From a virus: DNA of 64,000 nucleotides. Position 1 is the stretch's first letter. Every line of letters begins with the position of its first letter. The stretch lies in UHGV virus genome UHGV-0305822. One strand, written 5' to 3'. Shown piece by piece: positions 4,771 to 49,447 of the stretch. A program made the position numbers and the translations under genes. The notes under the pieces were generated by a model. The model made no database searches. It was given only the letters and a program-made list of their open reading frames with translations, and was not told where the DNA came from.

Positions 4771-4805
4771 CCCTACTCCTTAACGGGAGTAGGGTAGTTT
4801 TTATT
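4771..4805. terminator. bidirectional terminator hairpin between convergent genes
   Basis: Stem CCCTACTCC / GGAGTAGGG, loop TTAACG, followed by TAGTTTTTATT; same stem recurs at 45813 and 46429. Confidence 0.6.
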
Positions 4806-5283
4806 ATTCCGCAGGATGGAGCATTGTTCCGGTGTCAGGAGCTACACCTTCTTTACAGTGGAAGAAAGTAATGCCTTTACCATCACCCGTTTTATATTCT
4901 AAAGTAGAATACGCAAACGTTGGCGTTTTTGAAAGTAACCCATTTACACGGTAGTAACGTTGCCCCGTGATAGGATCGATATTTCCATTAACTTTACCTA
5001 ATAAATCTTTATAAAGTTGGGGTGACTCAATCTTACCATTTGGCCAAGTGGCTACCCAGTTAGCGCCAGTATCGATTACAGTTACTGAACCTAACATTAG
5101 GTTAGTCGAGCTGACGACAGGTTTGTAATTTACAAAATCCTGCTCTACGCCCATACAGGTGTAAATAACCATGTCGTGTGGCTCTACGGGTACAGTTGAG
5201 AATTGGCCATTACTATTCGGTTGTAAAGCACATCCTGCTAATGAAAAAACACCAACCATAGCGATAAGAAAACGTTTTAGCAT
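4804..5283 (-). CDS. predicted lipoprotein (159 aa)
   Basis: N-terminal signal peptide with lipobox LAGC (MLKRFLIAMVGVFSLAGCALQ); convergent to the hydrolase cassette. Confidence 0.6.
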   Translation of the reverse strand: MLKRFLIAMVGVFSLAGCALQPNSNGQFSTVPVEPHDMVIYTCMGVEQDFVNYKPVVSSTNLMLGSVTVIDTGANWVATWPNGKIESPQLYKDLLGKVNGNIDPITGQRYYRVNGLLSKTPTFAYSTLEYKTGDGKGITFFHCKEGVAPDTGTMLHPAE

Positions 5284-28623: not shown

Positions 28624-28830
28624 TTAGTCTTTTTTGTAGACAATTGCGTTACCGTGCAGTTTGTTGTTGCCGGAAATACCGATAACTTTGAATGCGTCGC
28701 CGCCAATTTTTTCAGCTTCAGCAGCCAGCTTACCCGTTACATGATCAACGGTGTCGCCGAAAGCGCTAACGTTACCGATTTTCTTAAACTCTTCTGGAAT
28801 ATGCTCAGCAGAAGAGAACTCTTTAATAGA
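28624..28830 (-). CDS. DUF1471 (BhsA/YdgH/McbA-like) domain protein without signal peptide
   Basis: C-terminal GGDAFKVIGISGNNKLHGNAIVYKK resembles the DUF1471 consensus (GA..Y.I.S.SG.N...GTA..YK); ATG at 28830 after GGAGAG RBS (ORF track start 28851). Confidence 0.45.
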   Translation of the reverse strand, partial: SIKEFSSAEHIPEEFKKIGNVSAFGDTVDHVTGKLAAEAEKIGGDAFKVIGISGNNKLHGNAIVYKKD

Positions 28831-29039
28831 CATAACAGCTCTCCATTTCAAAAGGAAGGTGGTCTAAGACCGACGTGTGTTACAACCGAAGCATAAGATA
28901 GCTCCTCCCCGTAGGGAGGAGTAGAGTGCGCGAAAAAAGTGGCCTGCTTAACTAAACGATGGGTTTAAGAAAAGTGTTGATAAAAAGCTTTACCAACGTC
29001 AGGTCACAATATATAAACACAACGTAAGAAAAAGGGGAA

Positions 29040-30005
29040 TTATTGCGGAGGTGATGTCGGACCATGTTTACCTTGGTGAATGTGAACGCTAAAGGTAATA
29101 CCGGAAATAATGGCATCTTTAACCGTAAAGACACCCACGCCTTCACCCGTACCACCGTATTTGAAGTTCTTAGCGACTTCCAAATTACCGGTGAACATCG
29201 CTTCATTCCCTTCCTGTTTAAAGTTCGGCGTTTTGAACGTTGTCGAACTGCCCGCTTCTGTTAACCAGGTTTGTGTTTTAAACGTAACGGAATTCGCTGC
29301 TTCCGTATTGCGGACTTCGCATTTTTCATTAATCGTTTTCGTTTCCAGGTTAATAGAGCGCTTTGAATAAATGAACGCATCTTCTTTGTTGATGTTCACT
29401 TTTGAAAGCATCGCATTCTCAAACCCGAGATCATCTTCAACCGAGTTAATGTAATACTTGTTTCCTTTATGGTCAACGCACTGCCACGTACCGTTTGCAT
29501 TATCAAACTGAAACAACCACGCCGCTTTCTCGCCATTCACCATACTTGTTCTTAGCGTGATATGTTTGTCAATCGTCGAAACGTTCAACACATACGCATT
29601 GGACAAGTCATCCGCCATTTGGTTTTCGGGGTCAGCCGACCACGCATAAACCGCATCTTCTAATCGCTTAACGTTAGCGAAGTTCAGATCAATCCAAAAA
29701 TAAATATCGGTTTTCCCCAAACGTAACAAGATAACGTAGTCTTCTCGTTTAACGTCAGGGGAATTAATTCGGTTGGAGTTAAACTTCCACCACTTTGCTG
29801 TTATCGTGTTACCCGTCTTAATGGTTAGGTTATCTGTTGCACCAGATGTTTCATGCGTCTTTTCAGTTGCTGAAGAAACAGATTGCACCACGGTAGGGTT
29901 AGCAAAGTTGGTTTCAATTGGTATCACTTTTACCCGATCTGTACCACGGGGTTTGTCTTCCGCGACGATACCAATTGAGAAAAAATCAACACTGGATTTC
30001 TCCAT
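29040..30005 (-). CDS. putative virion (tail/baseplate-associated) protein (321 aa)
   Basis: First gene of minus-strand structural block; beta-rich composition; placement only, no motif match. Confidence 0.4.
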   Translation of the reverse strand: MEKSSVDFFSIGIVAEDKPRGTDRVKVIPIETNFANPTVVQSVSSATEKTHETSGATDNLTIKTGNTITAKWWKFNSNRINSPDVKREDYVILLRLGKTDIYFWIDLNFANVKRLEDAVYAWSADPENQMADDLSNAYVLNVSTIDKHITLRTSMVNGEKAAWLFQFDNANGTWQCVDHKGNKYYINSVEDDLGFENAMLSKVNINKEDAFIYSKRSINLETKTINEKCEVRNTEAANSVTFKTQTWLTEAGSSTTFKTPNFKQEGNEAMFTGNLEVAKNFKYGGTGEGVGVFTVKDAIISGITFSVHIHQGKHGPTSPPQ

Positions 30006-30325
30006 CGGGACGTTCCTTAGATCGGAATTGATTTCAGATATATTTTACTTAAGTGAATAGGGACTGAACTGGTACTTCAGTCCCTACGGACACGTTACCC
30101 TTTTAGTACCTTTCGTTAAAGGTTACTAAAAATTACATTATGTCCCTTTATTCTGCTACTCGGGATACCGGTAGGGGGTAGGGGGCATTATGTATACGGA
30201 TATAAATAGCGGAGGTATACGGAGTATACCGACATACTCTTCCCAGAGGAACGTAGTGACTTCCTTATACCTCTTTTACAATCCATAATAATAGCCTTCC
30301 CTTCATTGGGATTAGCGAGTAAATC

Positions 30326-33682: not shown

Positions 33683-34261
33683 GTGTACCGATTAATAGAA
33701 ATGCGAAAAGACGTTTGGTTGGAAAACCTCGTCGATGGGGAGCTTGAGGGAATAGAGCTTTCCTTACCAGAAAGAGCGGACACGGTATTGGTCTTTCTGA
33801 TAAAACAGGCAGCGAAGGAACCGGTAGGAATCTTCAGCGTGGACTATAAAGACCCACGAGGGATTCATTTACGGAACATTTGCAGTGGTTTAGAAAGCTT
33901 ACCGGCTAATCCGTTCTTAAACTACGCAAAACGTAAACTCCAGCCAGGGCAACATCTCTGGGTAGTTCTAGCGCCTGATACACGCATTATACGTGACGAC
34001 CTGACTGCGTTTGTCCAAGCAACGAAAGTCAGTTTGTACAATCCTAATGCGGATCGTACCGATATGCCGTTTACAATCACCTTAGAAGACGATGGAACGC
34101 AAGAGGGTATTGAGGCAATTACGGAATTAGTAAACTCTTATCCGGTAGCGTCTATTGAGTTAGAAAACCCAAACCGATTACCGTTGGGTGATTTACTCGA
34201 ATGGATTGAGCTGAATACCGAGTTCCTCATTAACTCCCGGCAGTACCGGTTCGATGTATAA
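33683..34261 (+). CDS. hypothetical protein (192 aa)
   Basis: GTG start after GAGGTGG; followed by strong terminator. Confidence 0.5.
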   Translation: MYRLIEMRKDVWLENLVDGELEGIELSLPERADTVLVFLIKQAAKEPVGIFSVDYKDPRGIHLRNICSGLESLPANPFLNYAKRKLQPGQHLWVVLAPDTRIIRDDLTAFVQATKVSLYNPNADRTDMPFTITLEDDGTQEGIEAITELVNSYPVASIELENPNRLPLGDLLEWIELNTEFLINSRQYRFDV

Positions 34262-34265
34262 CATC

Positions 34266-34298
34266 GGTGGGGGTAAACCCCCCACCTTTTATTTTTTT
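34266..34298 (+). terminator. rho-independent terminator
   Basis: Stem GGTGGGGG / CCCCCACC, loop TAAA, then TTTTATTTTTTTG. Confidence 0.65.
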
Positions 34299-34391
34299 GT
34301 TCGTTAATATTAAAAATAATTTCAGATATATATTACCTAGGTGAGAGTACAAAAGCTCTCACTTAATAAAACCATTTTAGGAGTATTAAAG

Positions 34392-34763
34392 ATGAAAAAC
34401 GAATTATTTAAAGACCCGTTTGTTGTATTAATGATCGTTACTCGCGCTGCCACTAACCCAGAAAACCTGAAACGTTTACTTACTAACGAAGCATACCTTA
34501 TCGAACAGCGTGACGCGCAGTTAGCCAAACCGCACGCTGAAGGCCAGGCGAAAGACCTTATCTCTATTTTCCGTAACGAAGAATGGCGTAAAAACAACGA
34601 GCTGTCCGACAACTTGACGGTTGCAATTGCAAAACTCTTGACACTGTTCAATCTTGACAAAGACATTAACCAAAGCCTTTCTACAGAAGAGCGTCTGGAA
34701 ATGATAAGAGGTATCGGAGATAGTTATACACAGATTAAAGCATTACCCAACACAGTTATTTAA
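34392..34763 (+). CDS. hypothetical protein (123 aa)
   Basis: ATG at 34392 preceded by TTTTAGGAGTATTAAAG (ORF track start 34341 is upstream non-ATG). Confidence 0.5.
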   Translation: MKNELFKDPFVVLMIVTRAATNPENLKRLLTNEAYLIEQRDAQLAKPHAEGQAKDLISIFRNEEWRKNNELSDNLTVAIAKLLTLFNLDKDINQSLSTEERLEMIRGIGDSYTQIKALPNTVI

Positions 34764-34809: not shown

Positions 34810-35271
34810 ATGAAAACCTTTATCACATTCTTAATAACCATTTTAACTTTCGGCCTCAATAGCGCACACGCCGCTATCAACAGCTGGGAACAAATACAAA
34901 ACCCTGGCCAGGCAGTTTACGAAATTGAAGACACCGCCGGAAACGGACTGTCTATCAACTGTGACACAGAAACTGCGAATCGCAAATTTTACGGTCGCAT
35001 GGTTTGGTATTACGGTGAACCCGTAGGTGCAACTAACGCTGAAGATAACACGATGGATATTGTCGTAAACGGCAAAACCTATAACATCCCTACCGTGGAC
35101 GGTAGTGACAAAGCAGAACACGCTTGGGTTGCTTTCGTTAATGCTATCGGTAATGCCAAAACTTTCAGTGTGAGTATCAATGGTAACGATGCCGCTAACT
35201 TTACCGTAGAAGGCGAACGTCTGTCTGAAACTTTCTTCCAAAACTGTGGACACACCCGTCCTAACAAATAA
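34810..35271 (+). CDS. secreted protein (signal peptide), 153 aa
   Basis: N-terminal MKTFITFLITILTFGLNSAHA signal-like sequence; RBS GAAGGAG. Confidence 0.55.
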   Translation: MKTFITFLITILTFGLNSAHAAINSWEQIQNPGQAVYEIEDTAGNGLSINCDTETANRKFYGRMVWYYGEPVGATNAEDNTMDIVVNGKTYNIPTVDGSDKAEHAWVAFVNAIGNAKTFSVSINGNDAANFTVEGERLSETFFQNCGHTRPNK

Positions 35272-35293
35272 TTATTAGTCTTTTTTAGAGTGC

Positions 35294-35686
35294 GTGAAAA
35301 TGAATATCAGAACTATACTTTATACCATCATTATTTTCTGTGCGGTCGGAATTACTGGCACTTATGCTTTCGGTGATTCGGATGTCCGCTATTACGAACC
35401 GGCTCCTGACTCACCGATTATCAACCCGGATGAGACGCCTACGTTAATGCGCAGTTTCGGTAAACTACAAGTTTATCGTTTAGTGCGTGGTGAAACGTGT
35501 ACGGGATTACTCATTGCTGACACCCGTGCACAAGTCTACCAACGTCTGACGGATATCGCCTGCGAACAACCAAAGGTAATGTCGGTTAGCATCCATCCGC
35601 TATCAGTTGGTAACTATACCGCTGTGGACTTCTTTCACAACGCCGAATTAATCGGACGCGTTACCTTAAATCGTCCTGCCGAATAA
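35294..35686 (+). CDS. secreted/membrane-anchored protein, 130 aa
   Basis: Hydrophobic N-terminus ILYTIIIFCAVGITGTYA; start may be ATG at 35300. Confidence 0.5.
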   Translation: MKMNIRTILYTIIIFCAVGITGTYAFGDSDVRYYEPAPDSPIINPDETPTLMRSFGKLQVYRLVRGETCTGLLIADTRAQVYQRLTDIACEQPKVMSVSIHPLSVGNYTAVDFFHNAELIGRVTLNRPAE

Positions 35687-35704
35687 TCTAAAGGAGTAGT
35701 TACA

Positions 35705-36190
35705 ATGAAACGTTTACACACTCTGATGTTCTTTCTGGTTTTCTTGTTTATCGGTGTCACACCAAGTGTAGATGCGGCCTCCGTAGACGAATTGCTTACC
35801 TGTGATGGAAACGCTTGGGAAGGTCAGCCAAATGCGTGCCCAAACATCAACGACTTGTACGATACCGATAAGTCGTTTAAAGCCGTTGTTGATAAAACAT
35901 TAGACCCTGTGGGACTGGATGGTATGTTCGGCTCTAAAGGTTACATGGATGGCCCTGGCGGTAACATGTATCCGGTAAACATCAACAACAAAATCTGGAT
36001 TGAAAGTGGCGGTTGTAAAGCTAACGCTTGTGGTTGGGAATACATCGTAACGCTATACAACCCACACACCAAGAAACTCGTCGGTTATTACTACAACATC
36101 GACCCCGGTTATCTGATCTGGTTCGGTGATATCGGTGTTGCCGAATTCGCTTACCTGGTTAAGAAATACGTAGAACAATCTAAATACTAA
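35705..36190 (+). CDS. secreted Ivy-like protein (inhibitor-of-vertebrate-lysozyme fold candidate)
   Basis: Signal peptide MKRLHTLMFFLVFLFIGVTPSVDA; segment ESGGCKANACGWEYIVTLY...YYNIDPG parallels the Ivy CKPHDC loop region (SACKPHDCGSQRIAVMW...FSTIDEK) recalled from E. coli Ivy, but with N in place of the key His. Confidence 0.4.
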   Translation: MKRLHTLMFFLVFLFIGVTPSVDAASVDELLTCDGNAWEGQPNACPNINDLYDTDKSFKAVVDKTLDPVGLDGMFGSKGYMDGPGGNMYPVNINNKIWIESGGCKANACGWEYIVTLYNPHTKKLVGYYYNIDPGYLIWFGDIGVAEFAYLVKKYVEQSKY

Positions 36191-36201
36191 GGACTTTTAT
36201 C

Positions 36202-36612
36202 ATGAAAACTATCATCAATACTCTTCTCATTGCAATGGCTGTTCTGTTCTCTGTCAACGCTACAGCAAAAACAATACAGTTGCCAGACAATATTAAGTAC
36301 GTCAATAGCACCGATGATTTCTATTGTACGGAAATTGACGGCTTGTACTGCCAGGCGAAGAGTCTGTTTAAATACAAAGGTAGCAGATACGTATTCATCG
36401 TTGAGCAGGGTGGTGCCTGGTGTTACGACAGCCCAATGTCCGTACTCAACCTCGAAACGTGGAAGGCCCAACGTCTCGAATACAACGACAAACGTCTGTG
36501 CTCTGGTAATAACAAACCATTCTTCGAAGTCGTAGATGGTGTGCCAATGGTAGGGATATTAGACACTTCGGAAAAACCTATCGTTGTAGCTATGGATAAA
36601 CTTAAAATTTAA
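36202..36612 (+). CDS. secreted protein (signal peptide), 136 aa, 4 Cys
   Basis: MKTIINTLLIAMAVLFSVNATA signal-like N-terminus. Confidence 0.55.
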   Translation: MKTIINTLLIAMAVLFSVNATAKTIQLPDNIKYVNSTDDFYCTEIDGLYCQAKSLFKYKGSRYVFIVEQGGAWCYDSPMSVLNLETWKAQRLEYNDKRLCSGNNKPFFEVVDGVPMVGILDTSEKPIVVAMDKLKI

Positions 36613-36622
36613 GGAGTAACTC

Positions 36623-37012
36623 ATGCGTCTCGTCTGCGTTTTAGCATTCTTCTTCTCCCTGAGTGTAGCAGCATCTACTCAAGTTAACGATTTACTGCTA
36701 ACCCCAAACAACAATACCGATTACCAGTACAATCCTCCGGGGTTTGAAGTTTGTGAAGTCGGTGAAACAATCTGCCAAGAAGTCGGCGCAGACGGGCGCT
36801 ATATTCTGGTAAAAGCTGATGGTGGCACAATGTGTCCCGCAGGTTATTACTTTCTGCTCGATTCCGTCGCAAGAGAGGTTCTTCCTATCACCACGAAAAC
36901 GTGCGACCCTACCGTTGTCTTAACTCTCGCTAAAAGCAAATCTCGCGACCGTTACCTGATCGTTATCGAAGAACGGGGCAAGATGGCTGGTGCTATCGAA
37001 TTAGATCATTGA
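36623..37012 (+). CDS. secreted protein (signal peptide), 129 aa, 4 Cys
   Basis: MRLVCVLAFFFSLSVAAS signal-like N-terminus; RBS AAGGAG. Confidence 0.55.
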   Translation: MRLVCVLAFFFSLSVAASTQVNDLLLTPNNNTDYQYNPPGFEVCEVGETICQEVGADGRYILVKADGGTMCPAGYYFLLDSVAREVLPITTKTCDPTVVLTLAKSKSRDRYLIVIEERGKMAGAIELDH

Positions 37013-37021
37013 GTGTAGTCT

Positions 37022-37050
37022 TGGCCCCGATACGTTCGGGGTCCTTTTTA
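37022..37050 (+). terminator. rho-independent terminator
   Basis: Stem GGCCCCGA / TCGGGGTCC followed by TTTTT. Confidence 0.6.
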
Positions 37051-38220: not shown

Positions 38221-38225
38221 CGTTT

Positions 38226-38268
38226 GGGAGAACCTTCGGGTTCTCCCTTTCTTTATTTTTTTCTTTTT
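38226..38268 (+). terminator. rho-independent terminator
   Basis: Stem GGGAGAACC / GGTTCTCCC, loop TTCG, then long T-rich tract. Confidence 0.65.
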
Positions 38269-38298
38269 ACACCACACTCCGTCTTTATGGAGGTGGGT

Positions 38299-40803
38299 AT
38301 GCTAAAAGTTGAACGCATTATACTCAAAGGTTTTACGGGGATGGGGTTACATGAAATTGAAACCTTCGATTTCACTATCCAGTCTCCAACAACAATTATC
38401 CTGGGTGGGAACGGCTGCGGGAAAACCAGTCTACTGTCTGTGTTCTTACCCTTAGCACCGGCTAAAACCGAATTTAGGGACGGCGGTTCTTACACAAACT
38501 ACTGTTTAGTTGGCGATCAACGCTATCGATTCAAAGTTGCCCGTAAAGGCAACTCTTTGGTTTGTGATATTGAGAACTTGACCACGGGGACAAAGATCGT
38601 CGAGCAAGGTAATGCGAAAGTCTACAACTCCCGTGTTGAAGAAATCACGGGTATTACGAAAGAGATTAAAGAACTATTAAATGGTGAGGTGTTGTTAACC
38701 GATGCGGGAACCGAATTACGCCGCAAATGGTTTTACCGTTTAAGTACCTCTGACCTCACTTACGCGTTAGGGTTTTATCAGCGTTTACGTAAAAACCTTA
38801 CTGCCTTAAATGGGGGTATTGAAATCACCAGCCGCAAGATCGCCGAATTACGGACGCGTGTTATTGAGAACGAGGAAGAACGGCAGCAGTTAGCGACGAG
38901 ATTAAAAGGTTTGGAATCGGATTTACGTGAACTGAACCGAGAAATCGAACAGTTGCCAGGATTAAATCGTGCCGTCACCATCGAAACAATCCAAGCGTTA
39001 TTAAACAGCTTGGGCCCAACCATCGACGCAATATTACAACATCGTGGTGGCCTGCCTACTGATGAACAGATACTGACCGCGCGACAAAACGAAGCTACGG
39101 CCCGCGAAGCTGTCGTGTCTACTGAAACAGAGGTATCGATGTTGAATAAAGACTTGTCGTTATTAATGGATGAGTCGACACGACAAGACTACCTGATGCG
39201 GAATCACGAAGGTCTCAAGAATACGCTGGCACGTTTACGTGAGTTACTTACCAAATGGGACACCGAACATCTCTTTCCGGGTCTATTTAACGACAACATC
39301 AATTTAGACCAACTTCGTGCGGCTACAGATGCGCGTGTTTGGGGGCAACGGTTGGGAACAACACTAGACGCAATTCATTCAACCGAAAAACTTAACGTTT
39401 TGGAAGAACGACTTCTGGTGATGGATCAAAAAACCGCAGGGATGCGGGATAGACTCCAGCGAGTGGAGAACGTTTTACAGAATTTAAATCACGAACGTAA
39501 TCACTACTTAGAAACAGCGGAAGTGGATTGCCCGCAGTGTCGGTTTAAGTTTCGGCCCGGTGTTACGCGTTCTTTACCTGAACTTGAGTCTTCGATTCGC
39601 GGACAACAACAGCAGCGCACGGAACTGCAAACACAGTTAGAGGCCCTATTACGCGATCGTGTTGAATTAGAATCTGATGTAACTTATATGCGGCAGGTTC
39701 GTGAGATTGTACTGACGTATTCAAAGGACCCGGTATTGAGCATGTTCTTTAAGCGTTTGCAAGAACGTAACGTTTTCACAGAATCACGCGAACAGTTCGG
39801 GAGTCTATGCGCAGCGTTTGACAGTGAGTTGTACTCTGCTATTGAGTACCATGAAACCCGACAACGGTTAGTGAAGGCGGAAAAAGAATGGCAGGATGCC
39901 GTAGCGGCCGTTGGTAACGTCGATGGTGCTTTACAACAGAAAATCGCCTTCCAACAGTCACGATTAGGTAAAGCCACAGAAATGCTCTCAATGCGTCGTA
40001 GAGAGCACGAACTGGCTAACACGACACTTACCTATCTGGTGAATGTTAAACGTGCTGTAGATGATTTCAGTGCGTTATTCGAACGGTTAGAGAGTGATGT
40101 TAAGGTTACGTTGACAAATACGGTCGTCGAGGAACTCTTACGTGCACGAGAAGGGAAGCTGGATGCTTTTACAACCGCACGCGAACGTTATCGTCAGATG
40201 GAAAATGAATTGAATCAGCTCAACAGTTTGGAACGCGAACTTGCTGACTTACAAGCCCAGCAGTTCAATAACAAACTGATGATTCAAGCCTTCTCGCCAG
40301 AAAAGGGTGTACTTAGAAAGTATTTTTACAACGCTATCGTTAGAATCACAGAGTTAATGACGCGTTATATCGAACAAGTCTGGACGTACCCCATGCGCGT
40401 TATGCCTTGTGACCTCACTGACGGCGATTTGGATTATACTTTTCCTGTCCAGCTAAAAACGCATCCTGAGCCTGTTCCTGACGTGCGTAAAGGGTCTAAG
40501 GCGCAGCGTGCGATATTTAATCTGATGTTCAGGCTGACCGCGTACAAAGCGCTGAAGTTGCATCAGTTTCCGTTGCTTTTGGATGAGCCTTCGGAAGGCA
40601 TGGATGAGGAGCACCGTAACAACCTGGTCGGCTTTATTAAAACGTTAGCAAACTCGGGAGAATTTTCTCAACTGTTGGTAGTCTCCCACGAAGCCGAGGT
40701 TCATTCTAAACTTAATGAAGCATCGTACTGTGTCATCGAACCGGAAGGGGTGACATTGCCTGCGGTGTATAACGAAGGAGTAAAAATTGTTTATGCAAAC
40801 TGA
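38299..40803 (+). CDS. Rad50/SbcC-like ABC-type ATPase with zinc hook
   Basis: Walker A GGNGCGKTS near N-terminus; long coiled-coil-like middle with central CPQC (zinc-hook-like); C-terminal LLLDEPSEGMD Walker B/D-loop; ATG at 38299 after GGAGGTGGG (ORF track start 38224). Confidence 0.7.
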   Translation: MLKVERIILKGFTGMGLHEIETFDFTIQSPTTIILGGNGCGKTSLLSVFLPLAPAKTEFRDGGSYTNYCLVGDQRYRFKVARKGNSLVCDIENLTTGTKIVEQGNAKVYNSRVEEITGITKEIKELLNGEVLLTDAGTELRRKWFYRLSTSDLTYALGFYQRLRKNLTALNGGIEITSRKIAELRTRVIENEEERQQLATRLKGLESDLRELNREIEQLPGLNRAVTIETIQALLNSLGPTIDAILQHRGGLPTDEQILTARQNEATAREAVVSTETEVSMLNKDLSLLMDESTRQDYLMRNHEGLKNTLARLRELLTKWDTEHLFPGLFNDNINLDQLRAATDARVWGQRLGTTLDAIHSTEKLNVLEERLLVMDQKTAGMRDRLQRVENVLQNLNHERNHYLETAEVDCPQCRFKFRPGVTRSLPELESSIRGQQQQRTELQTQLEALLRDRVELESDVTYMRQVREIVLTYSKDPVLSMFFKRLQERNVFTESREQFGSLCAAFDSELYSAIEYHETRQRLVKAEKEWQDAVAAVGNVDGALQQKIAFQQSRLGKATEMLSMRRREHELANTTLTYLVNVKRAVDDFSALFERLESDVKVTLTNTVVEELLRAREGKLDAFTTARERYRQMENELNQLNSLERELADLQAQQFNNKLMIQAFSPEKGVLRKYFYNAIVRITELMTRYIEQVWTYPMRVMPCDLTDGDLDYTFPVQLKTHPEPVPDVRKGSKAQRAIFNLMFRLTAYKALKLHQFPLLLDEPSEGMDEEHRNNLVGFIKTLANSGEFSQLLVVSHEAEVHSKLNEASYCVIEPEGVTLPAVYNEGVKIVYAN

Positions 40804-42964: not shown

Positions 42965-43064
42965 ATATTATCATTAGGGCACACAACAAAGGAGTATTAG
43001 CTGTCCGCGCCGTCATTTCGTCTTACGGAATACGGAAATGTATAAATCCAACTGGAGAAACAAA

Positions 43065-43763
43065 ATGTTTCGTATCTTCTTTCTTTTACTGGTAACACTT
43101 TTCGCGTTTAACGCACAGGCGTCAACGTCAACGCCACATTCTAAGCATCAGCGTGAGTTTGCACAAATCCAACATCGGTTCGAAAAAGTCAGCCCGTTAA
43201 TTGTGGAAATCTCACGAAAGCAGGGCGTTGATCCCAAGCTGATGATTACGCTGATTTATCGTGAATCGCGTTTTGATCCCAAGGCTTACAACAAAAGCTC
43301 ACGAGCGCACAGCCTGGTACAAATGCTTCCAAGTACCAAGCGTAATCTGCTAAAGCTTTATGGAAAAGAATTAGGTCTTAGTCAGAACGCCGATTTGTAT
43401 AATCCGCGTAACGCTGTTTTGCTGGCTACCGCGTATGTTAAACATCTTGAGAAGGGGTTAACCAAACGACTCAAACGCAAGCCCACCATGGCTGAAATTG
43501 CGTTAGCTTACCACTGGGGTGAAAGTGGCGCTCACACGCGAATCAAAAGCAAATCTCGAGCAGCACAACGAGAAATGGCAGGCTTTATGAAAGACGCCGC
43601 GTTCTATAGCGCGAAAATCGATGTGCCTGTTGTTGTGGGCTCGGCCCCACGTCAGCTTGCGTTTGCGAAGAAAACACCACGTCAGATTCAACTGGCGGAA
43701 GTTAGTAGAATTTGGGATACGATAAACATGAGTTTTCCAATCAATAGAGGAGTTACCCTTTGA
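43065..43763 (+). CDS. secreted lytic transglycosylase (SLT domain) candidate
   Basis: Signal peptide MFRIFFLLLVTLFAFNAQA; YRESRFDPKAYNKSSRAHSLVQMLPST resembles the SLT catalytic ES ... G(L)MQ(L/I)(M)P motif; ATG at 43065 after GGAGAA. Confidence 0.55.
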   Translation: MFRIFFLLLVTLFAFNAQASTSTPHSKHQREFAQIQHRFEKVSPLIVEISRKQGVDPKLMITLIYRESRFDPKAYNKSSRAHSLVQMLPSTKRNLLKLYGKELGLSQNADLYNPRNAVLLATAYVKHLEKGLTKRLKRKPTMAEIALAYHWGESGAHTRIKSKSRAAQREMAGFMKDAAFYSAKIDVPVVVGSAPRQLAFAKKTPRQIQLAEVSRIWDTINMSFPINRGVTL

Positions 43764-48988: not shown

Positions 48989-48991
48989 TTG

Positions 48992-49447
48992 ATGAAAATG
49001 CTGTTATTCATCATGATGGTGTTCGTGGGGTTGGTGAGTAATAGCTACGGCGACGAAGTTAAACGTCCAGCTTATAGGCCACTGGAACTTCCTCCTACAC
49101 CGCCAATAATGGTGAATTGGAAAATTGACAATAACGCAATGCGTGAGTATGTTGCGGACGTCAACACCTATGCTTACTACGTTTATGTCTACACCCGAAA
49201 TTTAAACCAACAAGCCGTTAAACGTGGCTGGAGCCCACCAATGCTGGCTCCACTTTGTGAGCGTTATGAGTTACCGAAGTTACATGTTGTACCCGAACGC
49301 TTATCTCTTGACGAAAGCTCTTTAACGCCCCAGGAGATTAGCCGTGACCTATCGCGTAAACTCAATAATTTGTTGTGGAATTACCGTTCCGACCGTCAGA
49401 CACTACTCGATTCGTACAACCAATACTTGACATCGTGTTTGTACTGA
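48992..49447 (+). CDS. secreted protein (signal peptide), 151 aa
   Basis: MKMLLFIMMVFVGLVSNSYG signal-like N-terminus without lipobox Cys; ATG at 48992. Confidence 0.5.
   Translation: MKMLLFIMMVFVGLVSNSYGDEVKRPAYRPLELPPTPPIMVNWKIDNNAMREYVADVNTYAYYVYVYTRNLNQQAVKRGWSPPMLAPLCERYELPKLHVVPERLSLDESSLTPQEISRDLSRKLNNLLWNYRSDRQTLLDSYNQYLTSCLY

Follow-up and report, generated by a model that had tools for sequence, protein, structure and literature searches.

Introduction

The sp product of phage T4 excludes superinfecting phage by preventing peptidoglycan degradation, through modulation of lysozyme (PMC11436027), and from this protein, Spackle, it is already known that a periplasmic phage protein can shield the wall from other phages. 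Among bacterial proteins, the periplasmic inhibitor Ivy is described, by Clarke 2010 as cited in PMC3660660, as acting on both C-type lysozyme and bacterial lytic transglycosylases. Here we describe a cluster of five small genes, which we name P1–P5, at positions 34810–37012 of a 64,000-nucleotide (nt) stretch of viral DNA (UHGV virus genome UHGV-0305822). This whole stretch is called the window, and coordinates refer to it, on the plus strand unless stated otherwise. We tentatively propose that the cluster is an early, periplasm-directed operon for envelope protection or superinfection exclusion, in which one protein, P3, is a divergent member of the Ivy superfamily.

Results

Five consecutive genes for predicted exported proteins

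The first-pass annotation of the window had noted five consecutive small open reading frames (ORFs) on the plus strand with signal-like N-termini, most of them with 2–4 cysteines after the signal, in a run bounded by terminators. Our gene models and rule-based signal calls bear this description out. The unit comprises a promoter-like motif, a gene without a signal peptide (U1) and the five signal-bearing ORFs, all between two intrinsic terminators. The first of these (34266–34286), an 8-bp GC-rich stem followed by a T-run, ends the upstream gene at 33683–34261, and the second (37023–37043), again a hairpin with a T-run, closes the unit; a scan for hairpins followed by T-runs found no further convincing terminator between the two. 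The AT-rich promoter-like element occupies 34309–34349, with the core ATTTCAGATATATATTACCTAGGTGAG at 34319–34345. The first gene is U1 (34393–34763), which encodes 123 residues from an ATG with a good ribosome-binding site. Then follow P1 (34810–35271; 153 residues), P2 (35294–35686; 130 residues from a GTG, or 128 from the ATG at 35300), P3 (35705–36190; 161 residues), P4 (36202–36612; 136 residues) and P5 (36623–37012; 129 residues). A good Shine-Dalgarno sequence lies ahead of the ATG in four of these five ORFs. For P2 the ATG at 35300 is the more likely start, because gene callers picked that start in related contigs.

Signal peptides were called by rule, from N-terminal features followed by a small-x-small site. 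All five N-termini combine a K/R-containing n-region, an uncharged hydrophobic core of 10–15 residues and a small-x-small site, with predicted cleavage at AHA|A (P1), TYA|F (P2), VDA|A (P3), ATA|K (P4) and VAA|S (P5). The call is further supported by homology to exported families, as Ivy is periplasmic and YfjS a lipoprotein. The first-pass annotation had set its proposal of a periplasm-directed module against the possibility that the hydrophobic segments are transmembrane anchors; a sequence scan found no hydrophobic segment of transmembrane length after the signal in any of the five proteins. Their predicted mature parts contain 2, 2, 4, 4 and 4 cysteines from P1 to P5, and such even counts are the pattern expected of disulfide-bonded periplasmic proteins. 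Together with the Ivy fold predicted for P3, the YfjT relationship of P1 and a syntenic core in several genera of jumbo phages (all described below), the signals and the cysteine counts support the module that had been proposed.

The clustering is far from random. In a crude scan, eight of the window's 71 non-overlapping ORFs of at least 80 residues looked signal-bearing, and five of the eight form the P1–P5 run; a run of at least five signal-bearing ORFs arose in 0.03% of random placements (p ~3e-4). The other three signal-like N-termini belong to ORFs at 4804–5283 (minus strand), 43038–43763 and 48989–49447, one of which is a probable lipoprotein (MLKRFLIAMVGVFSLAGC, lipobox LAGC). These three suggest that the phage exports more than P1–P5.

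A predicted Ivy fold in P3

P3 on its own matched the NCBIfam model "Ivy family C-type lysozyme inhibitor" with E=1.3e-3, over the loop C104-KANA-C109. An exhaustive HMMER search with the P3 family yielded 53 relatives, many of which have a C-[EKQ]-x-H-N-C-G loop, and a profile of P3 and its relatives matched the Ivy structures in the PDB strongly (1gpq/1xs0, E=1e-13; 4ps6/1uuz, ~2e-9). The Pfam family Ivy (PF08816) was matched by 21 of 23 P3 relatives. Because this match comes via the profile of relatives, the link between P3 and Ivy is a transitive one. The HMMER alignments set the CKANAC of P3 opposite the CKPHDC of Ivy, and C104 and C109 are invariant across the 23 relatives. The predicted disulfides of P3 pair C33 with C45 and C104 with C109.

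Structure prediction, which the first-pass annotation had suggested as a check, gave an Ivy fold, in which helices pack on an antiparallel beta-sheet, for P3 and an all-beta domain for P5. The AlphaFold2 model of P3 has a predicted local distance difference test score (pLDDT) of 88.6 and a predicted template modelling score of 0.79. When it was compared with the PDB by Foldseek, the top eight matches were all Ivy (E 2e-4 to 3.5e-3, probability 1.00, template modelling scores 0.59–0.70), and the probability fell to 0.2 at the ninth match. The model and the family profiles agree in identifying P3 as a divergent member of the Ivy superfamily.

No homolog of P3 was found by tblastn (E<=1) in 50,697 deposited phage records, and no P3-like fold among the viral structures of BFVD. 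P3 is 65–67% identical between two phage lineages whose P2 proteins are 93–96% identical. In the four variants of the loop, the differences are confined to the three inner residues that follow the lysine (C-K-[A/S]-[N/H]-[A/T]-C).

Part of the operon in Escherichia coli islands

The nearest relatives of P3 outside its own phage lineage are chromosomal proteins of E. coli, with 60–71% identity. They are encoded in CP4-like islands, with dynamin, YjcZ(RdcB) and patatin genes on one side and DUF932, antirestriction, RadC, DUF987 and CbeA/CbtA genes on the other. These islands contain the promoter motif, a decayed P2, an Ivy-like P3 and, in many strains, P4, with P3 and P4 in the order and spacing of the phage. 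The motif reads ...AAAATATTTTCAGATATATATTACCT... in the island records L060 and L062; in a third, L003, three to four of its positions are mismatched. The island P2 is a frameshifted pseudogene that retains 78% identity to P2 over its last 54 codons, and the 136-residue ORF that follows the Ivy-like gene in many strains is 66–69% identical to phage P4. P1 and P5 are absent from the cassette, and gene fusions are present. In the genome of an E. coli O121 strain, for example, the P3 relative WP_000775500.1 (227 residues, CKANTC loop, about 60% identical to P3) is followed by the P4 homolog WP_000846713.1. A search of the K-12 prophage CP4-57 for the cassette found YfjT, the counterpart of P1, and nothing else.

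One of the phage lineages has 87% nucleotide identity to island L061 over 802 nt and a P3 that is 96–98% identical to island alleles. Furthermore, the cassette genes have a GC content of 41–47%, close to the 45% of the phage, and the flanking island genes one of 52–56%. The 802-nt match, the P3 allele identity and the phage-like GC content favour transfer from a jumbo phage to the islands, and we read the cassette as a captured part of the jumbo-phage operon, promoter motif included. A screen of 5426 complete E. coli genomes detected it, at a coverage of at least 80%, in 1868. This exchange with E. coli islands also points to Escherichia as the host of the phage.

A common cassette in an enteric bacterium raises the possibility that P3, as a member of the Ivy superfamily, protects the infected or carrier cell from animal gut lysozyme, doing the work of chromosomal Ivy as a "moron" gene of benefit to the host. 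The loops speak against this: neither P3 nor most of the island alleles keep the histidine that is needed to inhibit C-type lysozyme. Island loops have either His (CKAHAC) or Asn (CKANAC, CKSNAC, CKANTC) at this position. Such protection would also bring little gain to a strictly lytic jumbo phage, and it would leave four other exported proteins unaccounted for. We therefore regard this role as very unlikely.

The islands hold further genes beside the cassette. A secreted 180-residue ORF, isl180 (L003 7098–7640), stands in the position of P1 behind the island promoter motif; it has a "GDGCYFYILDG" stretch like that of P5 and YfjS but matched no family significantly, and searches of phage records and IMG/VR did not find it. 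Fusion of its first ~65 codons to the Ivy-like gene accounts for forms of 223–227 residues in many strains. The neighbouring dynamin-family, RdcB/YjcZ and patatin genes (L062 1–3966, L003 650–6965) resemble a conflict system; an identity as Eleos defence was considered and dropped, as no PADLOC-DB v2 model matched them (E<=1e-5).

Families of the remaining proteins

Scans of P1–P5 against Pfam, NCBIfam and PADLOC returned nothing above threshold, the sole signal being the weak Ivy match of P3, and the family profiles of P1, P2, P4 and P5 found nothing meaningful among PDB sequences. Comparison with homologs and between profiles was more informative. P1, which has 2 cysteines and matches phrog_3429, is assigned through homologs at 75–97% identity that carry PF27224 (YfjT). 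Its similarity to K-12 YfjT can also be detected directly, by blastp (24% identity over 133 residues, E=3e-13) and by hhalign (97.1%, E=6.7e-11), and we assign P1 to the YfjT family as a homolog of the YfjT of E. coli K-12 CP4-57.

P4 (phrog_8968) and P5 (phrog_5248) are related to each other (hhalign 94.5%, E=8e-8) and to slot B, a fourth exported protein of some related phages, with 161–165 residues and 4 cysteines, that is encoded between the homologs of P2 and P4 (hhalign with P4, 98.2%, E=6e-14; with P5, 94.5%, E=8e-8). These profile matches identify P4, P5 and slot B as paralogs. The P5 family also matched K-12 YfjS over 94 columns, with both cysteines in register (hhalign 88.3%, E=2.9e-6). 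Because the Pfam family YfjS_YafY (PF20494) barely detects the P5 family (1 of 31 members, at a weak E=0.12), we grade this kinship as probable rather than established: P5 is probably distantly related to the YfjS/YafY lipoprotein domain. For the P4, P2 and slot-B families, hhalign gave no significant match to YfjS. Neither P4 nor P5 has a lipobox (L-x-x-C), their sites being of the A-x-A type. The P5 model is a seven-strand all-beta domain with a pLDDT of 71.6.

P2 (phrog_9424) has 2 conserved cysteines, and intact copies occur only in SPN3US-like jumbo phages. Its family matched neither PDB sequences nor Pfam. A marginal hhalign match to the P5 family (E=0.0019, probability 14%) suggests that P2 is possibly a distant relative of P5. 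Two simpler schemes were set aside. P2 is not taken for a lipoprotein: the homolog gp180 of phage SPN3US has a LAAC lipobox, but its cysteine is not kept across homologs. Nor do the five genes form one set of paralogs, as neither P1 nor P3 is related to P4 or P5, and P2 is linked to them marginally at most. U1 matches phrog_27024 and is confined to the lineage of the window, contig L048 included; the other relatives have P1, or different small genes, right behind the motif.

A promoter motif of the phiKZ type

The element at 34309–34349 recurs as a 40-nt match, at 93–100% identity, in 51 records of SPN3US/Erwinia jumbo phages. In 10 related loci, including those of SPN3US, phiEaH2, Asesino, SPAsTU, pEa_SNUABM_29, Machina, ChrisDB and metagenomic relatives, it lies directly upstream of the homologous cluster, or of a short operon that holds the cluster. 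Within the window two copies were seen, with none expected by chance. The second (30031–30057, ATTTCAGATATATTTTACTTAAGTGAA, 3 mismatches) lies in a divergent intergenic region, between a minus-strand gene at 29040–30005 and plus-strand genes from 30326, and this site is kept in a related contig (L014, at 1448).

The core of the motif includes TATATTAC, the motif predicted for early promoters of the virion RNA polymerase (vRNAP) in the phiKZ group. Table 2 of PMC7058600 lists TATATTAC as the phiKZ promoter together with a 201phi2-1 consensus, TTTRARR_BTATATTACDWHDGTG, which the window motif resembles. A review states that conserved AT-rich motifs ahead of presumed early operons were found to serve as early vRNAP promoters in all cases with transcript profiles (PMC7598289). 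From the conservation of the motif and these two sources, we infer that the operon is probably expressed early.

The K-12 prophage CP4-57 has two degenerate matches to the promoter core, with 3 mismatches each (L017 16739–16755 and 20454–20470; 0.06 expected), one right after yfjT and the other ahead of the ypjI pseudogene.

A mosaic cluster in several genera of jumbo phages

The phage of the window is related to Salmonella phage SPN3US (Seoulvirus), Erwinia phage phiEaH2 (Erskinevirus) and Machina-like phages, and at the DNA level the 40-nt intergenic element is its only match to them. At the protein level, homologs of P2, P4 and P5 are syntenic in 53 records and lie, in every case, a few genes upstream of an SbcC/SMC-like gene (38224–40803 in the window). 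Between P2 and P4, SPN3US, phiEaH2, Asesino, SPAsTU and pEa_SNUABM_29 carry slot B, and the cluster of Machina and ChrisDB has three genes only. The full P1–P5 set occurs in five metagenomic phage contigs of 107–225 kb (IMG/VR, Logan), three of them of 221–225 kb, which fall into two sub-lineages. The P4 of the window is 22–28% identical to its homologs in other genera of jumbo phages. From this distribution, P1 and P3 are identified as additions in the metagenomic clade, and the cluster as a mosaic in which a conserved P2/P4/P5 core is joined by swapped-in genes.

A locus of this kind might have no joint function at all, being a "landing pad" that gathers unrelated exported accessory genes, each acting alone or neutral. 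Its content does depend on lineage, with P1, P3 and U1 present or absent and slot B replaced, and P4 and P5 belong to other families than P1 and P3. Against this stand the order and position of P2, P4 and P5, which are kept across at least three genera, and the single promoter motif and single terminator that they share. Moreover, P3 and P4 moved together into E. coli, and E. coli pairs the same families elsewhere, with yfjS and yfjT adjacent and isl180 beside the Ivy-like gene. We consider a run of genes without joint function rather improbable.

In one contig (L049 4106–4567, IMGVR_UViG_3300045988_113438), P1 is 74% identical to the P1 of the window, and P2–P5 and two downstream genes are 94–99% identical; this looks like a local replacement of the allele of the YfjT-like gene. 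The main texts of studies on the SPN3US virion and on its essential genes do not mention gp180–183, which is weak evidence that these proteins are neither structural nor essential. SPN3US gp186, the homolog of the SbcC/SMC-like ORF at 38224–40803, is reported to be essential (PMC5105663). In the window, the listed TTG start of that ORF overlaps the terminator of the preceding gene (38226–38247), and the real start is probably an ATG some 60–75 nt downstream (MEVGMLKVERI...). A Pfam scan of the large neighbouring ORFs was uninformative. Further upstream, a small minus-strand ORF (28624–28851) stands where L014 and SPN3US (gp094, RefSeq tags) have a DUF1471/YdgH-BhsA-like gene, and this copy in the window apparently lacks a signal peptide.

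A possible role in superinfection exclusion

How could these proteins act? We hypothesize that the operon forms one transcription unit, read from its early promoter of the phiKZ type, with the injected vRNAP as the presumed polymerase, and that its five small, disulfide-stabilised proteins would pass through Sec into the periplasm soon after infection. There the disulfide-closed CKANAC loop of P3 would enter the active-site cleft of an enzyme that cleaves peptidoglycan, most likely a lysozyme or lytic transglycosylase borne by the virion of a phage that arrives later. With this enzyme blocked there would be neither cell-wall penetration nor lysis from without. The YfjT-like P1 and the beta-proteins P2, P4 and P5 could be further periplasmic binders working alongside P3, with which P4 travels as a cassette. 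Early timing, export, the target enzyme, exclusion and the cooperation of the five proteins are the parts of this model that we infer.

A pointer toward anti-phage action comes from E. coli. In a CRISPR interference screen in an E. coli O121 strain, described in a preprint (10.1101/2024.04.20.590424), T7 gained in fitness and plating efficiency when Hypo_04657, an Ivy-like protein whose loop reads CKANTC, was knocked down. By its loop motif, family and serogroup, Hypo_04657 is very likely the island copy of P3, so that the phenotype bears on P3 indirectly. We also count the persistence of the cassette in E. coli chromosomes as a sign that it works outside the phage. The variation in the loop and alleles of P3, and the apparent replacement of P1, would fit a role in an arms race.

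The same inhibitor could be turned inward. The exported proteins, P3 above all, might keep the endolysin or tail lysin of the phage itself in check, or spare the wall premature damage, during the long latent period of jumbo phages and until programmed lysis. Phages of the phiKZ group use transglycosylase-type lysins, and both the predicted periplasmic location of P3 and its Ivy fold, which suggests an inhibitor of muramidases or transglycosylases, would suit such a task. Yet the operon carries an early-type promoter motif and does not lie in a lysis cassette; no holin, endolysin or spanin was identified adjoining the cluster, a statement about its surroundings rather than about the whole phage. 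E. coli chromosomes, moreover, keep the cassette without phage lysis genes, and knockdown of its presumed E. coli relative helps T7, an unrelated phage. Control of lysis timing is thus unlikely in our view.

A third class of targets would be the cell-wall enzymes of the host. By inhibiting lytic transglycosylases or autolysins, the proteins could stabilise or remodel the sacculus of the enlarged cell, or dampen envelope stress. Ivy is reported to control bacterial lytic transglycosylases (PMC3660660); the probably early expression would suit this purpose, and several paralogous binders could address several host enzymes. What it leaves unexplained is why E. coli retains the cassette and why T7 benefits from the knockdown, and we regard control of host enzymes, too, as improbable.

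Several observations weigh against the exclusion role that we tentatively prefer. In the NCBIfam Ivy model (NF007443) P3 scored 18.6 bits against a curated cut-off of 180, and a Pfam scan of P3 alone gave no match at E<=0.1. Its loop has Asn107 where Ivy has its lysozyme active-site His. P1, P2, P4 and P5 are without known activity, as are YfjS and YfjT, and the P5 model had no specific structural neighbour among PDB folds. A PADLOC-DB v2 scan of P1–P5, isl180, the O121 pair, YfjS and YfjT gave no match. The early timing of the operon is deduced from its promoter motif, and the T7 result is that of a preprint on an E. coli protein roughly 60% identical to P3. Finally, blocking peptidoglycan cleavage could be just as useful for timing lysis or for controlling host autolysins.

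An additional possibility concerns the bacterium rather than the phage. The captured cassette still has a putative phage early promoter, which might be fired by the vRNAP of an infecting jumbo phage or be constitutive, and the cassette would then be an envelope-level defence of about one third of E. coli that lies outside current catalogues. We rate this as quite a long shot.

Discussion

To judge from the collections and literature that were searched, an Ivy-fold protein in a phage appears to be new, as does its place in a conserved operon of several genes for exported proteins in nucleus-forming jumbo phages. On the same basis, so do the family links to YfjT and YfjS and the capture of the operon, with its promoter motif, by about one third of E. 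coli genomes. If our reading is correct, P3 would be the first phage-encoded inhibitor of the Ivy family, and the operon a second, independent invention of the Spackle strategy, in the form of a multi-protein, fast-swapping periplasmic toolkit of nucleus-forming jumbo phages. It would suggest testable functions for E. coli YfjT, YfjS/YafY and the pair of the Ivy-like and 136-residue proteins. The islands document that genes of a strictly lytic jumbo phage, together with a promoter motif, have passed into bacterial chromosomes. In phage therapy, a widespread envelope-level factor may lower the plating of phages such as T7.

Other systems share some of these features. MliC/PliC, PliI and PliG are, like P1–P5, small exported proteins, and they protect peptidoglycan; none of them was matched by P1–P5 in Pfam or in PDB sequences. 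The K-12 cryptic prophages CP4-57 and CP4-6 hold the YfjS/YafY and YfjT families, and yfjS and yfjT are adjacent genes for exported proteins, as the phage genes are. YfjS is a lipoprotein, whereas P5 has a signal of the signal peptidase I type. The E. coli island cassette (WP_000775500.1 + WP_000846713.1), to which O121 Hypo_04657 very likely belongs, has direct homologs of P3 (about 60–67% identity) and P4 (about 65%) behind the same promoter motif; unlike the phage operon, it is chromosomal and partly decayed, with a P2 pseudogene and fusions.

Spackle, the inhibitor of the T4 tail lysozyme gp5, is likewise small, encoded by a phage, exported through Sec and made during infection. The action proposed for the module, blocking peptidoglycan cleavage by incoming phages, would be the same. 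Spackle was not among the matches when the PDB was searched by fold and sequence with P3 and P5, or by sequence only with P1, P2 and P4. It is the product of a single gene, whereas the present locus is a five-gene operon with an inferred activity. Ivy itself (E. coli YkfE, P. aeruginosa PA3902; PF08816; 1gpq, 1xs0, 1uuz, 4ps6) shares with P3 the fold, a similar size and a periplasmic location, predicted in the case of P3, and has at the aligned position the same disulfide-closed C-x4-C loop followed by Gly. P3 is 12–19% identical to the solved Ivy structures and differs in an extra N-terminal disulfide motif, C-x11-C, that is common to a separate bacterial subfamily. Unlike these bacterial inhibitors, P3 is encoded by a phage, within an operon of other exported proteins.

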